Shown: piece by piece, positions 6,896 to 38,583 of the stretch
Layout: each line of letters opens with the position of its first letter
How positions within the stretch are numbered: the stretch's first letter is position 1
Assembly: GCF_024298765.1 (NCBI RefSeq)
Contig: NZ_CP101210.1
Reading direction: 5' to 3' (one strand)
DNA length: 64,000 nt
From: Escherichia coli
GTDB lineage: Bacteria; Pseudomonadota; Gammaproteobacteria; Enterobacterales; Enterobacteriaceae
Position numbers and translations under genes: made by a program
The notes under the pieces: generated by a model
The model's input: the letters and a program-made list of their open reading frames with translations, nothing else
The model's database searches: none
What the model was told of the DNA's origin: nothing

Positions 6896-7597
6896 TCAGA
6901 ACGTTTTCTCGTTGGGTTGCCAGCGACAGAAATCAGAGTTTGCCACTAACAGTAATTGCGAACCTTCGGGCGCTTCCAGCCATGCCACGCTGACATCAAC
7001 AGAAGAGCGGCTCTGGCGGCGCTCGATATGCGCTATCGCCTGCGAATCTAAATCAGGTTTAATGGTTTGCCCTTCGCAGGTGGTCACGGTCTGTTCCATC
7101 GCATGCCAGCGCCCCTGGCGCAGCACGACTCTTCCCTGACGTAAGGCATCGCTAATCTGGCGGATCTGATCAGCACGATAACGGTATAAATCGATTTGGT
7201 CGTTAGAAAGCTGCTGCTTTTCCCCATCGGATTCACGTTGCATAAAGCTCAGATCGCCGCGATCGTCAAAACGCGCGCGAATGTTCACCGGCGGTTTGCT
7301 GTAAACATTGATATTGATGAGCGTAAGGTTATCGCCCTGCCAGCGATACTCTCGCGTGGTGGTATCGCCACTGCGCCACGGGCTAAACACGGCAAGCAGA
7401 TGCACATTATCGCCGCTGTCTTTTCGCCAGATGCGTACCGCGCCCTGGTCTTCAGCAAATCCACTGGCGGTAAAGGGAGGAAGTGAAGAGTTGTGGCTAC
7501 AGGCAGTGAGAAACAGCGCACCTGCCAGCATCAATGATCGACGCCAGAAAGACAAAAGGGGTGAAACCACCCCTTCGTTAAAACTGTTCACTGCCAC
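6896..7597 (-). CDS. yjaH: Conserved hypothetical protein (probable lipoprotein)
   Basis: ORF with hydrophobic N-terminus and Cys (LAGALFLTACSHN); synteny between zraP and hupA; track start is probably a GTG, exact start uncertain. Confidence 0.8.
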   Translation of the reverse strand: MAVNSFNEGVVSPLLSFWRRSLMLAGALFLTACSHNSSLPPFTASGFAEDQGAVRIWRKDSGDNVHLLAVFSPWRSGDTTTREYRWQGDNLTLININVYSKPPVNIRARFDDRGDLSFMQRESDGEKQQLSNDQIDLYRYRADQIRQISDALRQGRVVLRQGRWHAMEQTVTTCEGQTIKPDLDSQAIAHIERRQSRSSVDVSVAWLEAPEGSQLLLVANSDFCRWQPNEKTF

Positions 7598-7603
7598 GCA
7601 ATC

Positions 7604-7876
7604 TTACTTAACTGCGTCTTTCAGTGCCTTGCCAGAAACAAATGCCGGTACGTTAGCTGCGGCAATTTTGATTTCTTTACCGGTCTGCGGGTTGCGGCCA
7701 GTACGCTCAGCGCGGTGGTTCACTTTGAAGGTACCGAAACCAACCAGTTGTACAGCATCGCCTTCTTTCAGAGACTCAGTAATTGCAGCCAGAGTGGACT
7801 CCAGAGCAGCTTTAGCCTGGGTTTTGGACAGTTCTGCTTTCTCTGCAATTACATCAATCAGTTGAGTCTTGTTCAT
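7604..7876 (-). CDS. hupA: Nucleoid-associated protein HU alpha subunit
   Basis: 90 aa [73 protein letters not shown]. Confidence 0.98.
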
Positions 7877-7975
7877 AAGTTATCCTTACAATGTGTTTAT
7901 CGCTTGCTAAGCATCGAGTGCGACGGAAATGCCAGAATAGCACTCTCCTGCATACACGCACCGATAGCCACTTTT

Positions 7976-8012
7976 TTTCGCCCCCCAAATGTAGACCAGA
8001 CGGGGGGCGAAA
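7976..8012. other. GC-clamped stem-loop (tttcgcccccc / ggggggcgaaa) in the yjaG-hupA intergenic region
   Basis: 11-bp inverted repeat with a 15-nt loop, preceded by a T7 run on the plus strand. Confidence 0.5.
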
Positions 8013-8062
8013 GGGAAGACTCCAGGTACGACAAATCAGGCGTTAAATCACGTTTTCTGGTC

Positions 8063-8653
8063 TTATTGCTGAAAAATTATACCAATATTGCTCTCACCCG
8101 CCTCACGCAGGTCTGCCCTAAGGCCTTTTATCAGCTCGATATCGCGTTCTTCGCACTCAGCTAAAAGTCGGAATATTTCCCACTGAATGTCCCATTCTTG
8201 CTCTACAGCTGGGTTTTCTTTGAGCTCTTCATCGCTCATTTCGCGACCAGCCTGAGTCATTTCCAGCATCGCAACGGTCGTGATGGAGGTCTTACTCACT
8301 TCCACCGCGTGTTCGAGCGTTTCACCACTCAAACGCGAATGGACCAGTTCACTTAACGCCACGCAGGCATCGATTGCCGGATAAACGCCGTACAGATCGA
8401 AATCGTCGGCTGAAGGAATCGCTTCTTCAAATTTCTCCAGTTGGCTGTCGAAATTTACTTTTGCGTCTTTGACGGTCAGCGTTTCCCAGATGAGATCGAG
8501 AATACGGCGGTAAATTTGCCCATCACCAAAACCAGTTTGCTGACAGAATACGGCGTAATTGGGGTACATGCGTTCGCATAAGCAGGCCATAAAAGTGACG
8601 TGCTGCCAGCTTTCCAGGCGCTCCAGACGCAGATGAATTGGGTTTTGTAACAT
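8063..8653 (-). CDS. yjaG: DUF416-family conserved protein
   Basis: 196-aa ORF in conserved position between hupA and nfi. Confidence 0.88.
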   Translation of the reverse strand: MLQNPIHLRLERLESWQHVTFMACLCERMYPNYAVFCQQTGFGDGQIYRRILDLIWETLTVKDAKVNFDSQLEKFEEAIPSADDFDLYGVYPAIDACVALSELVHSRLSGETLEHAVEVSKTSITTVAMLEMTQAGREMSDEELKENPAVEQEWDIQWEIFRLLAECEERDIELIKGLRADLREAGESNIGIIFQQ

Positions 8654-17808: not shown

Positions 17809-20800
17809 TTACTCGTTATCAGAACCGCCCAGACCTGCGTTCAGCAGTTCTGCCAGGCTGGCAGATGCGTCTTCTGCAGTCACCTGCGGTGCAGCCGGAG
17901 CTTCACCCGCAGCACGGCGACGCATACGATCCTGGTGGTACGCGTAACCGGTACCTGCCGGGATCAGACGACCCACGATAACGTTCTCTTTCAGGCCGCG
18001 CAGTTCGTCGCGTTTGCCCGCAACGGCTGCTTCGGTCAGCACGCGAGTGGTCTCCTGGAACGATGCCGCGGAGATGAAGGACTCGGTTGCCAGAGACGCT
18101 TTGGTGATACCCAGCAGATCGCGGGAGTAAGTTGCACCCACTTTGCCGTTCGCTTCCAGTTCGCGGTTTGCGATCTTGACGCGAGAGTATTCAACCTGTT
18201 CACCTTCCAGGAAGTCGGAGCTGCCCGCGTTAACGATGGTAGCTTTACGCAGCATCTGACGAACGATAACTTCGATGTGTTTATCGTTAATCTTAACGCC
18301 CTGCAGACGGTATACGTCCTGTACTTCGTTAACGATGTAACGAGTAACAGCATGAACACCACGCAGACGCAGAATGTCGTGCGGCGCTTCCGGACCGTCG
18401 GAAATTACGTCACCACGTTCTACACGTTCACCTTCGAACACGTTGAGCTGACGCCATTTTGGAATCATCTCTTCGTACGGATCGCTACCGTCTACCGGGG
18501 TGATAACCAGACGACGTTTACCTTTGGTTTCTTTACCGAAGGAAACGATACCGCTGATTTCAGCCAGGATTGCCGGCTCTTTCGGACGACGTGCTTCGAA
18601 CAGATCCGCAACGCGCGGCAGACCACCGGTGATGTCCTTGGTACCGCCGGATTCCTGCGGAATACGCGCCAGGGTGTCACCAGAGCTGATCTGTACGCCA
18701 TCTTCCAGCTGAACAATCGCTTTACCCGGCAGGAAGTACTGCGCAGGCATATCGGTACCCGGGATCAGTACATCGTTACCCTGAGCATCAACGATTTTCA
18801 GTGCCGGACGCAGATCTTTACCACCTGCGGTACGTTCTGCGGAATCCAGAACCACCAGCGAAGACAGACCGGTCAATTCGTCGGTCTGACGCGTAATGGT
18901 CTGACCGTCGATCATGTCAGTAAAGCGTACAAAACCGCTTACTTCGGTGATAACCGGCATGGTGTGCGGGTCCCAGTTTGCAACGGTTTCGCCGCCAGCA
19001 ACCTGTTCGCCATCGCCTTTTGCCAGTACCGCACCGTAAGGTACTTTGTAGCTTTCTTTGGTACGACCGAATTCGTCGATCAGTTTCAGTTCGGTGTTAC
19101 GGGAAGTGATAACCAGTTTACCGCTGGAGTTCACAACCGACTTCACGTTGCTGAGCTTGATGCTACCTTTGTTTTTCACCTGGATGCTGGATTCAGCAGC
19201 CGCACGAGATGCCGCACCACCGATGTGGAACGTACGCATGGTCAGCTGTGTACCCGGTTCACCGATGGACTGTGCCGCGATAACACCGATTGCTTCACCT
19301 TTGTTGATGATGTGGCCACGCGCCAGGTCACGACCGTAGCAGTGCGCACATACACCAAAGTCGGTGTCACAAGATACAACAGAACGTACTTTAACCGCGT
19401 CGACAGAGTTCTCTTCCAGCAGGTCACACCACTGTTCGTGCAGCAGCGTGTTGCGCGGAACGAGGATATCAGCAGTACCCGGCTTCAGAACGTCTTCAGC
19501 AGTTACACGACCCAGTACGCGATCGCGCAGCGGCTCTTTAACGTCACCACCTTCGATAACCGGAGTCATCATGATACCTTCATGAGTACCACAATCGTCT
19601 TCGGTAACCACTAGGTCCTGCGCCACGTCAACCAGACGACGAGTCAGGTAACCGGAGTTCGCCGTTTTCAGTGCGGTATCCGCCAGACCTTTACGAGCAC
19701 CGTGGGTGGAGATGAAGTACTGGAGTACGTTCAGACCTTCACGGAAGTTCGCGGTGATTGGCGTTTCGATGATGGAGCCATCCGGCTTCGCCATCAGACC
19801 ACGCATACCAGCAAGCTGACGAATCTGTGCCGCAGAACCACGCGCACCGGAGTCGGCCATCATGTAGATGCTGTTGAAGGAAACCTGCTTCTCTTCCTGA
19901 CCGTCACGGTTAATAACGGTTTCAGTTTGCAGGTTATCCATCATCGCTTTGGATACACGATCGTTCGCCGCAGCCCAGATATCGATAACTTTGTTGTAGC
20001 GTTCGCCCGCAGTTACCAGACCAGACTGGAACTGCTCCTGAATTTCAGCAACTTCTGCTTCTGCCTCGGAGATGATTTCGTGTTTCTTCTCCGGGATGAC
20101 CATGTCATCGATACCAACAGATGCACCAGAACGCGCTGCATATGCAAAGCCGGTGTACATGATCTGGTCCGCAAAAATAACGGTCGGTTTCAGACCGAGA
20201 ATGCGGTAGCAGGTGTTCAGCATTTTGGAGATTGCTTTTTTACCCAGCGCCTGGTTGACGATGGAGTAAGGCAGACCTTTCGGTACAATCATCCACAGAA
20301 TGGCACGGCCAACAGTCGTGTCTTTCAGGCTGGTTTTCGCTACTAATTCACCGTTAGCATCTTTTTCATACTCGGTGATACGCACTTTAACGCGCGCATG
20401 CAGAGAGGCCAGACCAGAGCGATACAGACGTTCTGCTTCTTTCGGGCCAGTCAGCACCATGCCTTCGCCTTTGGCGTTAACACAGTCACGGGTCATGTAG
20501 TACAGACCCAGTACAACGTCCTGAGACGGAACGATGATTGGTTCGCCGTTCGCCGGGGACAGGATGTTGTTGGTAGACATCATCAGCGCACGCGCTTCCA
20601 GCTGGGCTTCCAGCGTCAGCGGTACGTGAACTGCCATCTGGTCACCATCGAAGTCGGCGTTATATGCCGCACAAACCAGCGGGTGCAGCTGGATAGCTTT
20701 ACCTTCGATCAGTACCGGTTCAAATGCCTGGATACCCAGACGGTGCAGAGTCGGTGCACGGTTCAGCAGTACCGGGTGTTCGCGGATAACTTCGTCCAGG

Positions 20801-28998: not shown

Positions 28999-29011
28999 TT
29001 ACGGGCAAGGC

Positions 29012-29056
29012 CCATAAAAACAAAAGGCGCGAAATTGTATTCCAATCTCGCGCCTT
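29012..29056 (-). terminator. Intrinsic terminator downstream of nusG
   Basis: Minus strand aaggcgcgagattggaatacaatttcgcgcctt followed by ttgtttttatggg. Confidence 0.7.
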
Positions 29057-29093
29057 GTGCAACGATTAAATCGCCGCTTTTTTGATCGCTGGG

Positions 29094-29639
29094 TTAAGCT
29101 TTTTCAACCTGGCTGAAGTCCAGCTCTACCGGGGTCGCACGACCGAAGATAGAAACAGACACTTTCAGACGAGATTTCTCGTAATCCACTTCTTCAACAA
29201 CACCGTTGAAGTCAGCGAACGGACCATCATTAACACGGACCATTTCACCCGGTTCAAACAGCGTTTTCGGACGCGGCTTATCACCAACCTGCTGCAGGCG
29301 GTTCATAATCGCATCGACTTCTTTATCGCTGATTGGTGCAGGACGATCGGAAGTACCGCCGATGAAGCCCATCACACGCGGTACGCTGCGCACCAGGTGC
29401 CAGCTCGCGTCGTTCATCACCATCTGAACGAGGACGTAGCCAGGGAAGAATTTACGTTCGCTTTTGCGACGCTGACCGCCACGGATTTCAACCACTTCTT
29501 CGGTTGGTACCATGACTTCACCAAACAAATCTTCCATGTTGTGTAATTTGATATGCTCACGCAGCGACGTTGCTACGCGGCCTTCAAAACCGGAAAACGC
29601 CTGAACGACGTACCAGCGCTTTTTAGGAGCTTCAGACAT
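29094..29639 (-). CDS. nusG: Transcription termination/antitermination factor NusG
   Basis: 181 aa [73 protein letters not shown]. Confidence 0.98.
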
Positions 29640-29640
29640 C

Positions 29641-30024
29641 TCAGAACCTCAGGCCAGTGATAAAGGATACCAGGCGAACCAGAATACCATCCAGTCCCCA
29701 CAGGATCAGTGACATTACTGCGGTAACCGCAGCCACAATCAGCGTGGTGTGCAATGTTTCCTGGCGAGTCGGCCAAATGACCTTACGGACTTCGGTACGC
29801 GCTTCACGGGCAAAAGCAACGGTAGCTTTACCTTTTGTCGTTAACAGCGCGACACCACCCGCTGCAGCAATCAGAATTACTACGGCCAGCGCACGCAGCG
29901 GCAGCATAATGTCGCGATAAAGATAGTTGCCGACAATCGCCACCAGGAGCAATGCCACCACAACGACCCACTTCATCGCTTCCAGGCCGCGCCCGCTTCC
30001 TTGAGCTTCGGTATTCGCACTCAT
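29641..30024 (-). CDS. secE: Preprotein translocase subunit SecE
   Basis: 127 aa [45 protein letters not shown]; three TM segments. Confidence 0.97.
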
Positions 30025-30189
30025 AAACCAACCTGTCAGAAGTATTCTACAAACATTTTCACCCCGCGATCGCGAGGCAAACCAAATCGAAACGCGTATT
30101 AGCTTTTCGGATTATACGCCCTCAACAGAGCCTGTCTCAGCAATGATTATGACAAAGAAAATCACTGATGAGCCAGGTTCTGGTACGAA

Positions 30190-30221
30190 AGCGTGCAAAA
30201 AGGGCATCAAATGATGCCCTT
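30190..30221 (-). terminator. Intrinsic terminator downstream of tufB
   Basis: Minus strand aaaagggcatcatttgatgccctttttgcacg. Confidence 0.7.
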
Positions 30222-30253
30222 TTAGTGCGCATTGCGTCAAATGTTATCGGCAA

Positions 30254-31474
<1,221 letters not shown>

Positions 31475-31552
31475 TCACCACATCAACCAGGCAACATGCC
31501 CGACTTGTTGAATGCAATAAACAGAAGGAAAAAACAGGGAGGAGAAAAGAAG

Positions 31553-31628
31553 TGGTGCTGATAGGCAGATTCGAACTGCCGACCTCACCCTTACCAAGGG
31601 TGCGCTCTACCAACTGAGCTATATCAGC
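31553..31628 (-). tRNA. thrT: tRNA-Thr (anticodon GGU)
   Basis: Reverse complement GCTGATATAGCTCAGTTGGTAGAGCGCACCCTTGGTAAGGGTGAGGTCGGCAGTTCGAATCTGCCTATCAGCACCA. Confidence 0.95.
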
Positions 31629-31634
31629 ACATCT

Positions 31635-31709
<75 letters not shown>

Positions 31710-31825
31710 ATCCTGGAACTCGGCTACCTGATTTTCATTCTGCACTGAATATCGAGAGAAGCTCTCTTTATTCGAGCCGGTAAGCGAACTTATCGTCTCG
31801 GGCTACGCCATCGCGTGGCCGAAAT

Positions 31826-31910
<85 letters not shown>

Positions 31911-31918
31911 GGACTTGA

Positions 31919-31994
<76 letters not shown>

Positions 31995-32004
31995 ATCAAG
32001 TAGC

Positions 32005-32075
32005 GCGCATTCTATGGAGACATGCGAGTTCATGCAACTAAAAAATTGCATAATTTGTTTTATTGGTCACATTTT
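32005..32075 (-). promoter_or_regulatory. Promoter of the thrU-tyrU-glyT-thrT-tufB operon with AT-rich upstream element
   Basis: Minus strand TTGCATgaactcgcatgtctccaTAGAATgcgcgcta (17-bp spacer) preceded by an AT-rich tract. Confidence 0.6.
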
Positions 32076-32355
32076 ATGCGACGCGATGAAGAAACAGCCG
32101 AATGGAGGGCAGATTAGCACACTTTTTCAACATCATTGTGCTCAACAATGCGCTCCTGCTAAACCATAATTCTTTTTATCAGATGGAATATCTGTCACAT
32201 TGCTTTTCAACGATAGCTTCCTGGGAGAGATTTTTTCTTATTATTCCTCCCCATCTGGTGTTACCCTCCTGCCCATTAACCCATTCAACAGAACTGTGGC
32301 GCGCCATGGCAAATATCGCTTTGCCGATAGAGCTATGACCGCCAGAAACATGCTT

Positions 32356-33306
32356 ATGAGTATAAAAGAGCAAACGTTAATGACGCCTTACCTACAGTTT
32401 GACCGCAACCAGTGGGCAGCTCTGCGTGATTCCGTACCTATGACGTTATCGGAAGATGAGATCGCCCGTCTCAAAGGTATTAATGAAGATCTCTCGTTAG
32501 AAGAAGTTGCCGAGATCTATTTACCTCTATCACGTTTGCTGAACTTCTATATAAGCTCGAATCTGCGCCGTCAGGCAGTTCTGGAACAGTTTCTTGGTAC
32601 CAACGGGCAACGCATTCCTTACATTATCAGTATTGCTGGTAGTGTCGCGGTGGGGAAAAGTACAACCGCCCGTGTATTGCAGGCGCTATTAAGCCGTTGG
32701 CCGGAACATCGTCGTGTTGAACTGATCACTACAGATGGCTTCCTTCACCCTAATCAGGTTCTGAAAGAACGTGGTCTGATGAAGAAGAAAGGCTTCCCGG
32801 AATCGTATGATATGCATCGCTTGGTGAAGTTTGTTTCCGATCTCAAATCCGGCGTGCCAAACGTTACAGCACCTGTTTACTCGCATCTTATTTATGATGT
32901 GATCCCGGATGGAGATAAAACGGTTGTTCAGCCTGATATTTTAATTCTTGAAGGGTTAAATGTCTTACAGAGCGGGATGGATTATCCACACGATCCACAT
33001 CATGTATTTGTTTCTGATTTTGTCGATTTTTCGATATATGTTGATGCACCGGAAGACTTACTTCAGACGTGGTATATCAACCGTTTCCTGAAATTCCGCG
33101 AAGGGGCTTTTACAGACCCGGATTCCTATTTTCATAACTACGCGAAATTAACTAAAGAAGAAGCGATTAATACTGCCATGACGTTGTGGAAAGAGATCAA
33201 CTGGCTGAACTTAAAGCAAAATATTCTACCTACTCGCGAGCGCGCCAGTTTAATCCTAACGAAAAGTGCTAATCATGCGGTAGAAGAGGTCAGACTACGC
33301 AAATAA
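32356..33306 (+). CDS. coaA: Pantothenate kinase (type I)
   Basis: 316 aa from [26 protein letters not shown]; P-loop GSVAVGKST; track ORF extended upstream. Confidence 0.95.
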
Positions 33307-33309
33307 TTT

Positions 33310-33333
33310 TCAGGGGAGCTAATGCTCCCCTAT
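33310..33333. terminator. Bidirectional hairpin between convergent coaA and birA
   Basis: aggggagctaatgctcccct flanked by A/T runs on both sides. Confidence 0.5.
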
Positions 33334-33334
33334 C

Positions 33335-34300
33335 TTATTTTTCCGCACTACGCAGGGATATTTCACCGCCCATCCAGGGTTTTATTATTCCATCCTGCTC
33401 AAGCAATAAAGCGCCCTGTTTGTCTATTCCACGTGAAATGCCAAATATTTCTTTATCACCAATGATAAGTTTCACTGGGCGATTAATAAAATTATCCAGC
33501 TTTTCCCAGCGCGAAAGATAAGGTGCCAATCCTTCTTGCTCGAAGAGTTCCAGCGCCGCGCGTAATTCACGTATGAGCATGGCCGCCAACGTATTACGAT
33601 CGAGATTGATTCCCGCTTCCTGCAGCGTGATCCACCCTTGATTAACGACACTCTCTTCAACACGACGCATTGCCATGTTGATCCCGGCTCCAATGACTAT
33701 TTGCGCCGCATCGCCGGTTTTGCCAGTTAGCTCCACAAGAATGCCTGCCAGCTTGCGATCCTGCAGATAGAGGTCATTAGGCCATTTAACACGAACTTTA
33801 TCTGCACCCAGCTTGCGTAATACTTCCGCCATCACGATACCGATAACCAGACTTAAACCAATCGCCGCCGCCGGGCCTTGTTCCAGACGCCAGAACATCG
33901 ACAAATATAAGTTTGCGCCAAAAGGCGAAAACCATTTCCGCCCCCGGCGACCACGGCCAGCCTGCTGGTATTCTGCAACACAGGCATCGCCCGATTTAAG
34001 CTCTCCGATACGATCAAGAAGGTACTGATTCGTGGAGTCAATAACGGGCAGCACAGTTACACTACCGCCATCCAGCTGACCCAATATCTGTTCAGCATTA
34101 AGTAACTGGATAGGCTCAGGCAGGCTGTATCCTTTACCCGGAACGGTAAAGACATCAACGCCCCAGTCACGCAGTGTCTGAATGTGTTTATTAATAGCCG
34201 CCCGGCTCATTCCTAACGTTTCACCCAACTGCTCACCAGAGTGAAATTCGCCATTCGCTAACAGCGCGATTAATTTCAGCGGAACGGTATTATCCTTCAT
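33335..34300 (-). CDS. birA: Biotin-protein ligase / bio operon repressor
   Basis: 321 aa [62 protein letters not shown]. Confidence 0.97.
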
Positions 34301-35325
34301 GAAATCGTCTCCACTGCGCTAACTTCACCTGATGCACCAATAAAGCGAACTTCAGGCTCAAGCCAGACATTAAATTTTTCACCCACTTTTTGTCTTACAT
34401 GATGTGCCAGTTGCACCACATCTTCGCTTTTTGCATTGTCTTCATTAATGAGGACTAACGCCTGTTGACGGTGCACCGCAGCACCACCCATTTGCATCCC
34501 TTTTAGCTGGCACTGATCGATAAGCCAACCTGCTGCCAGTTTTACTGAACCATCCGCCTGGGGATAATTTGGTGCTGTTGGAAATTGTGCCAGTAATGCT
34601 TTAGCCGTTTCGGCAGATACAACAGGGTTTTTGAAGAAACTACCGGCATTGCCATTCACTTTTGGATCAGGGAGTTTGGTGGTGCGCATATGACACACCG
34701 CATTAAATACTTGCTGTGGCGTTACGGTTGTAGGATCCAGACGAGTTAAGTCACCATACGTTAGTACAGGTTGCCACTCTTTTGGCAGACGCAGACCTAC
34801 GGCTACAATGGCGAAGCGGTCCTGGTATTCATGTTTAAAAATACTGTCGCGATAGCCAAAACGGCACTCTTTGGCAGTTAAGCGCACTAGCTTGCCTGTC
34901 GCCAGTTCAACACAGTCAACATAAGCGCAAACTCGCTGTAATTCTACGCCATAAGCACCAATATTCTGGATAGGTGATGAGCCGACACAACCAGGAATTA
35001 ATGCCAGATTTTCCAGACCAGGCATACCTTCCTGCAAAGTGTATTTTACCAGGCGATGCCAGTTTTCTCCGGCTCCTACATGTAAATACCACGCATCAGG
35101 TTCATCATGAATTTCGATACCTTTAATCCGGTTGATGATCACCGTGCCGCGATAGTCTTCCAGAAAAAGTACATTACTTCCTTCACCCAGAATAAGAACG
35201 GGTTGTCCTTCTGCGGTTGCATGCTGCCAGGCATTGAGTAGTTGTTGTTCGTCTTCGGCACATACAATGTGCTGAGCATTATGATCAATGCCAAATGTGT
35301 TCCAGGGTTTTAAGGAGTGGTTCAT
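34297..35325 (-). CDS. murB: UDP-N-acetylenolpyruvoylglucosamine reductase
   Basis: 342 aa [34 protein letters not shown]; 4-bp overlap with birA. Confidence 0.97.
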
Positions 35326-35411
35326 AGCTGCTTTCCTGATGCAAAAACGAGGCTAGTTTACCGTATCTGCGGGGGGATGGCTTGTAGATATGATGACAGG
35401 AAGAGTTTGTA

Positions 35412-35447
35412 GAAACGCAAAAAGGCCCAGTCTTCCGACCGAGCCTT
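35412..35447 (-). terminator. rrn operon terminator (single hairpin)
   Basis: Minus strand aaggctcggtcggaagactgggccTTTTTgcgtttc immediately 3' of the 5S gene. Confidence 0.65.
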
Positions 35448-35459
35448 CTGCTTAATTTG

Positions 35460-35579
35460 ATGCCTGGCAGTTCCCTACTCTCGCATGGGGAGACCCCACA
35501 CTACCATCAGCGCTACGGCGTTTCACTTCTGAGTTCGGCATGGGGTCAGGTGGGACCACCGCGCTAAGGCCGCCAGGCA
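35460..35579 (-). rRNA. rrfB: 5S ribosomal RNA
   Basis: Reverse complement TGCCTGGCGGCC...GGGAACTGCCAGGCAT, 120 nt; two positions differ from the 5S sequence I recall. Confidence 0.9.
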
Positions 35580-35677
35580 AATTCTGTTTTATCAACACGT
35601 CTCGTTATGACCTGTCGATTTAATCTGTATCAGGCTGAAAATCTTCTCTCTATCCGCCAAAACACCTTCGGCGTTGT

Positions 35678-38583
<2,906 letters not shown>

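Follow-up and report, generated by a model that had tools for sequence, protein, structure and literature searches.

A single intrinsic terminator without rrB at the 3' end of an rrnB-type operon in Escherichia coli

The locus between the 5S rRNA gene and murB

The window, a 64,000-nucleotide stretch of an Escherichia coli genome (NZ_CP101210.1), carries an rrn operon on its minus strand, where 23S and 5S rRNA genes were found with Rfam; the 5S gene is followed on the same strand by murB and birA (Table 1). The interval between the 5S gene and the murB start codon (ATG at 35325) occupied 35326-35459 and was exactly 134 nt long, as the earlier note on this DNA had stated. When the window 5S gene was aligned with rrfB of MG1655, differences were found at positions 12-13 and 71. 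Positions 12-13 (35567-35568) read CU in the window and AG in MG1655 rrfB (GGCGGCCTTAGCG vs GGCGGCAGTAGCG), and the 5S genes of outgroup species were variable there. At position 71 (35509, minus strand) a U was present instead of a C (GCGCTGATGG vs GCGCCGATGG). The latter was the sole difference, across a 335-nt query, from the closest relative, strain 104 (NZ_CP029164.1), whose 5S-murB interval matched that of the window at every base; the 335-nt query had a 100% match in none of 5,426 complete E. coli genomes (best match 99.7%), and the change may be private to this strain or an error of sequencing.

Table 1. Features of the 5S-murB region, in window coordinates
Feature	Position	Strand	Basis
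5S rRNA gene, last gene of the rrnB-type operon	35460-35579	-	Rfam RF00001, 90.5 bits; ends set by comparison with E. coli 5S
Empty site of the tRNA-linked repeat rrB	35454-35455	-	Alignment to MG1655 and comparison of K-12 rrn 3' ends
Terminator hairpin	35417-35451	-	Fold
U-rich tract TTTTTGCGTTTCT after the stem	35411-35423	-	Sequence; alignment
Locus-specific spacer, terminator to murB	35326-35410	-	Orthologous to MG1655, 2 SNPs
Motif ATACGGTAAACTAGCC, upstream of murB	35351-35366	-	Conserved in outgroup loci
murB CDS, 342 aa	34297-35325	-	ORF list; named murB in all matching genomes
birA, downstream of murB	33335-34300	-	ORF list

The motif ATACGGTAAACTAGCC was kept from Escherichia to Klebsiella, Enterobacter and Kosakonia and probably serves murB as the promoter -10 region. 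A consensus promoter scan of 34800-36000 reported no murB promoter at this motif or elsewhere in 35326-35410.

One hairpin was found in the 134 nt and no second one. It starts 9 nt past the 3' end of the 5S gene, on the rrn strand and upstream of murB. Its core stem is formed by 35437-35445 pairing with 35424-35432 around a GGAA loop (35433-35436), so that the stem-loop (35424-35445) reads GGCTCGGTC-GGAA-GACTGGGCC and contains 9 bp, six of them G-C pairs, closed by a 4-nt loop. Pairing of GCAGAA with UUUUGC adds an A/U extension, which brings the extended hairpin to 15 pairs, and the U-tract UUUUUGCGUUUCU lies directly 3' of the stem. The features of an intrinsic (Rho-independent) terminator were thus present, namely a G+C-rich stem-loop, an adjoining U-rich tract and a position at the end of the transcription unit on the transcribed strand.

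The hairpin folded with an energy of -23.1 kcal/mol (z = -3.44), and only 1 of 200 shuffled sequences folded as well. Its stability was about that of K-12 T2 (-22.7 kcal/mol) and weaker than that of T1 (-33.9 kcal/mol); the core stem accounted for -15.1 kcal/mol, included two G-U wobble pairs and was the weakest among the T1-type alleles compared. When the stems of seven alleles or species were aligned, 98.4% of the cells were paired and two pairs showed compensatory changes: pair 4-19 occurred as U-A, U-G and C-G, and pair 6-17 as A-U, G-U and G-C, with the window holding the wobble state at both. The shuffle control for covariation was not significant at n = 7 (94 of 500 shuffles), and the result is a tendency toward a conserved stem. 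A consensus terminator scan of 34800-36000 did not report the hairpin. The same scan applied to MG1655 detected T1 and missed T2, and because a terminator as well characterised as K-12 T2 was missed too, the silence of the scan on the window hairpin reflects a limit of the scan and is not counter-evidence.

Comparison with the K-12 rrn 3' ends

The rrfB-murB interval of MG1655 is 300 nt long (rrfB end 4171756, murB start 4172057); T1 comes first in it, and a spacer and a repeated 5S 3' end separate T1 from T2. The earlier note had described the K-12 region similarly, as two hairpins and a 5S 3'-end repeat over about 300 bp. Pairwise alignment, the check that it had proposed, showed that the two intervals are not identical and that the difference from K-12 is real: the window has a net 166 nt less. 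What it lacks begins with the 3' flank of T1, continues through the spacer and the repeated 5S 3' end, and takes in the 5' half of T2. Approximately 100 nt from the U-tract to murB was orthologous to MG1655. The last 18-19 nt of the upstream RNA gene, repeated in K-12, occurred in the window only once, at the 5S end itself.

The single hairpin combined parts of both K-12 terminators. K-12 rrnB T1 reads GGCTCAGTC-GAAA-GACTGGGCC, and the window stem-loop was identical to it at 20 of 22 bases and to the T1 of K-12 rrnA and rrnD at 21 of 22, fitting a T1-type pattern, GGCTCAGTC-GRAA-GACTGGGCC. The flanks TAAGCAGAA (5') and TTTTTGCGTTTCTACAAACTCTT (3') were identical to those of K-12 T2, and the U-tract was the one that follows K-12 T2. 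Conversely, the flanks of T1 (AAAACGAAA on the 5' side and TTTCGTTTTATCTGTTG on the 3' side, forming a long perfect stem) were absent around the window hairpin, where the T2-like TAAGCAGAA and TTTTTGCGTTTCTAC were found. The description of one hairpin after the 5S gene with a T1-like stem and T2-like flanks, as first made from the sequence, was therefore accurate.

The 166-bp module of K-12 is a named element that the earlier note had left unrecognised, the tRNA-linked repeat (TLR) rrB, which encodes the sRNA RrB (Stenum et al. 2021, PMC8144298). The TLR copies rrA, rrB and rrF are produced by read-through of T1 and processed to short-lived sRNAs that bind Hfq and CsrA (PMC8144298); termination is given as 87% at T1 and 100% at T2 (Orosz 1991, as cited in PMC8144298). 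The module would fall between window bases 35454 and 35455. A blastn search of the window with the TLR core (word size 7) returned nothing but the 23-nt 5S end, and on its sequence the window carries the empty-site allele of rrB. Relative to the K-12 rrnB arrangement of T1, rrB and T2 (Brosius 1981; Orosz 1991; PMC8144298), the window thus shared the locus from 5S to murB, the 3' flank on the T2 side, the U-tract and the downstream spacer, and differed in having one hairpin instead of two and neither the rrB gene nor the second 5S 3' end.

In a comparison of the K-12 rrn 3' ends, also suggested in the earlier note, rrnA, rrnB and rrnD (after rrfF) shared the module in which a spacer and a repeat of 18-23 nt from the 5S 3' end lie between T1 and T2, the remaining four operons having single terminators (PMC8144298). 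One T2-type hairpin stood right after the 5S gene in rrnG, rrnE had a hairpin of its own type, and rrnC and rrnH ran into tRNAs. K-12 rrnA and rrnB were the same from the 5S gene through the T2 hairpin, except for one base of the T1 loop, and diverged immediately beyond it. The architecture of the window was that of K-12 rrnG and of the short rrnB ends of E. coli B, BL21 and PE15 (the 5S gene, CATCAAATTA, and one hairpin in a GGCC...GGCCTTTTTGC frame), with a different stem interior, GGCCATCC-TGAC-GGATGGCC in those operons and GGCTCGGTC-GGAA-GACTGGGCC in the window.

No family was reported over the TLR/RrB or the terminators by Rfam, either at the gathering threshold in 29000-37000 of the window or at an E-value of <=0.01 in the MG1655 and strain 104 loci. 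The sole extra match was to naRNA4, a REP-derived nucleoid-associated RNA, downstream of T2 at MG1655 rrnA (436-497 of that locus sequence); it scored 31.7 bits, below the gathering score of 59.5.

In strain 104, no copy of T1 or of the TLR was found at rrnA, rrnB, rrnD or rrnE, the four operons checked; rrnC, rrnG and rrnH lay outside this check and are free of TLRs in K-12. Its rrnA, rrnD and rrnE ended in single T2-type hairpins without a TLR. The strain from which the window derives is probably devoid of rrA, rrB and rrF altogether. The rrnA and rrnE operons of strain 104 were near-identical for about 80 nt after the 5S gene, including the hairpin GGCTATCCGTCAGGATGGCC and a REP-like GCCGGATGCGACGCTGGCGCGTCT (19200-19340 and 7990-8150 of the locus sequences), a likeness suggesting that homogenisation reaches past the terminator. 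The rrnE terminator of K-12 differed from that of strain 104. Strain 104 also had no yjaA between the rrnE 5S gene and yjaB, with a 125-nt gap in place of the 384-nt gene of MG1655 (locus sequence 7557-8241); yjaA is one of the Clermont phylogroup markers.

Distribution in E. coli and other Enterobacteriaceae

The K-12-type long form, scored as the TLR core joined to rrnB-specific downstream sequence and covered to >=80%, was present at rrnB in 2,516 of 5,426 complete E. coli genomes (46%). About 2,900 complete genomes had the short interval, O157:H7, CFT073 and E. coli B among them. When rows were drawn at even intervals from the ranking, 59 were full-length, 32 of them short in one piece and 27 long; 26 of the short rows had spans of 334-335 nt (T1-type) and six had spans of 333 nt (T2-type).

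The 68-nt terminator region of the window was identical in 64 genomes and matched at >=90% identity in 1,403 more. Since megablast extended this query over the hairpin, alleles were separated by bands of identity and not by coverage. A variant of the T1-type allele with four T shares no 28-mer with the 68-nt query and was invisible to it; a separate query was therefore used. That query includes 21 nt of the 5S gene and matches every operon, and only its >=99% identity band was counted, giving 425 genomes. Single terminators of T1 type were thus present in at least about 1,900 genomes (35%), some of these allele counts being BLAST identity or coverage bands and not genome-by-genome readings; judged from the evenly spaced sample, their share is probably about 44%. 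The T1-type single terminator occupied one place per genome at the median, beside rrf. T1-type alleles were read directly in strain 104 (the same as the window), S40 (GGCTCAGTC), O157:H7 (GGCCCGGTC), CFT073 (AGCCCAGTC) and FDAARGOS_1264 (GGCCCAGTC with four T), and the plain T2 hairpin was read in E. coli B, PE15 and OkiPb01693.

The TLR itself also varied between genomes. A full copy of the TLR core was detected in 3,942 of 5,426 E. coli genomes by sensitive blastn (3,941 by megablast), and the RrA/B/F-type repeat was absent from about 27% of complete genomes. The number of copies ranged from 0 to 3 between strains: K-12 had three, O157:H7 had one, at rrnD, and CFT073 retained only a 30-nt fragment. 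The sRNA family has been described as conserved across Enterobacterales (PMC8144298). That paper, which treats the sRNAs as conserved, is silent on their absence in about 27% of genomes. In the literature searched, no paper was found describing strain-to-strain presence or absence of the rrn TLRs, and nothing relevant was found on gene conversion at E. coli rrn terminators.

Outgroup loci were collected with a degenerate murB pattern from contigs representing one genome per species, yielding 79 loci. The end of a 5S gene was visible upstream of murB in 48 of these; 40 had a true 5S gene and one hairpin, four had a TLR (Kluyvera genomosp. 3, Klebsiella indica, Enterobacter sp. CC120223-11 and Salmonella diarizonae) and four were unclear. 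Single hairpins before murB are the norm across Enterobacteriaceae. Among the 40 single hairpins, 26 were T2-type, five were T1-type and nine were of other types. Enterobacter sp. JUb54, one of the five, had T1 followed, across a short unrelated spacer, by a T2-type hairpin, and lacked the repeat of the 5S end. In Enterobacter sp. BIGb0383, no terminator other than a complete T1 with T1 flanks preceded murB. Escherichia sp. E1V33 and E. coli E69 had single hairpins of T2 type.

The rrnB ends of E. whittamii, Kosakonia oryzendophytica and a Pluralibacter MAG resembled the window most directly, in that their T1-type stem was flanked by AAGCAGAAGGC and GGCCTTTTTGCGTTT and lay 118-129 nt ahead of the murB ATG in the loci with a visible 5S end. 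The E. whittamii stem was CATCAAATTAAGCAGAAGGCTCAGTCGAAAGACTGAGCCTTTTTGCGTTT, 129 nt from the ATG, and the Kosakonia and Pluralibacter loci had the same frame with GGCCCAGTCGGAAGACTGGGCC and GGCTCAGTCGAAAGACTGAGCC. In E. albertii, a hairpin of the same stem type was found at the same position, with GGCCCGGTCGAAAGACCGGGCC ahead of the same TTTTTGCGTTTCTACAAAC; the contig begins at this hairpin, so that the upstream sequence and the TLR status lie beyond its end. The stems of these four species differed from that of the window by point differences, partly compensatory. The T1-type stem is the ordinary single-terminator stem at rrnB, both in many lineages of E. coli and elsewhere in Enterobacteriaceae, and the "hybrid" of T1 stem and T2 flanks is an old and widespread terminator type whose label is K-12-centred.

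Origin and consequences of the short form

We interpret the window as a natural, old and common empty-site 3' end of an rrnB-type operon, with one intrinsic terminator after the 5S gene and without rrB, and not as a rearrangement of this particular strain; we assign this reading a probability of roughly 0.88. The terminator is an ordinary allele built from known parts and appears functional. A polymerase that passes the 5S gene would transcribe the 9-bp G+C-rich stem, the GGAA loop and the A-U extension and then UUUUUGCGUUUCU, and transcription of rrnB would end about 85-90 nt before murB. The murB-birA pair would rely on its own promoter. Processing of the 5S 3' end is expected to be normal, because the CAUCAAAUUAAG after the 5S gene is that of K-12 rrfC and rrfH (rrfG is one base off).

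Under this interpretation, the K-12 tandem form at rrnB is most likely the derived one and would have arisen by gene conversion from a TLR-bearing rrn operon; the identity of K-12 rrnA and rrnB to the end of T2, followed by divergence, is the pattern expected of a conversion tract into rrnB from such an operon. O157:H7 belongs to phylogroup E and CFT073 to B2, and both branch outside the A/B1 clade that holds K-12. The presence of the short T1-type allele in these two strains and in E. whittamii suggests, by parsimony, that the short form is older and the long form derived at rrnB, a polarity that we hold with moderate confidence only, given that it is a parsimony argument with few Escherichia outgroups. 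Against it stand the T2-type single hairpins of Escherichia sp. E1V33 and E. coli E69 and the truncated E. albertii contig. The allele of E. coli B is K-12 minus the TLR; either a deletion across the direct repeats or a conversion event with an rrnG-type end as donor would account for it.

The opposite polarity, in which the tandem of T1, TLR and T2 was ancestral at E. coli rrnB, short forms arose by repeated loss and the T1-type stem was kept through patch conversion, is unlikely. The TLR long forms before murB in Kluyvera, Klebsiella indica, an Enterobacter and Salmonella diarizonae show that the module is ancient, and the short T2-type allele of E. coli B is what a direct-repeat deletion would give. 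However, the long form was found in only 4 of 48 outgroup loci, and the short T1-type form occurred in E. whittamii and in lineages that are generally placed basal in E. coli (B2 with CFT073 and E with O157:H7). Moreover, a loss model needs two events to produce the T2-T1-T2 mosaic.

The earlier note had taken the single hairpin to suggest recombination or gene conversion in the rrn terminator region of this strain. The general part of that proposal stands, since rrn 3' ends do exchange between operons, as seen in the identity of K-12 rrnA and rrnB and in TLR copies varying from 0 to 3; the restriction to this strain does not, the short form being the majority at rrnB, occurring in other species and having no donor at the four strain 104 operons checked. 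A recent T1-T2 fusion with loss of the intervening DNA is very improbable, and the counts across E. coli and the outgroup loci already largely refute it. Such an event would account for the mosaic of T2, T1 and T2 sequence that the hairpin presents relative to K-12, and a deletion could have been mediated by the direct repeats on either side of the TLR (18-23 nt of the 5S 3' end), in a region where exchange among operons is clear. A single crossover between T1 and T2, however, would leave the 5' flank of T1, AAAACGAAA, whereas the T2 flank is present instead. Furthermore, the identical 68-mer recurred in 64 genomes and its T1-type relatives in at least about 1,900, including O157:H7 and CFT073, the same kind of terminator was found in other species and genera, and the lack of a T1 donor at the four strain 104 operons argues against recent conversion in the window's strain. 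The last alternative, a collapsed assembly of a repeat-rich rrn 3' end that removed the TLR, can practically be dismissed: an element flanked by direct repeats and multi-copy in some genomes is prone to collapse in short-read assemblies, but about 2,900 complete genomes, produced by many laboratories on many platforms, have the short interval, and a collapse would yield the T2 stem and not a distinct T1-type stem found once per genome.

For E. coli as a species, we consider it somewhat more probable than the contrary that the RrA/B/F family is a dispensable presence/absence polymorphism, with 0-3 copies and about 27% natural nulls that probably include CFT073 and the lineage of the window, and that the single terminator with a T1-type stem is older than the K-12 T1-T2 tandem at the rrnB 3' end. 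The textbook rrnB T1-T2, among the most used terminator cassettes of cloning vectors, is the native state in only about 46% of E. coli genomes. The absence of rrA, rrB and rrF from about one quarter of complete genomes argues against an essential function, and strains without them are natural knock-outs in which the roles proposed for these sRNAs with CsrA and Hfq can be tested.
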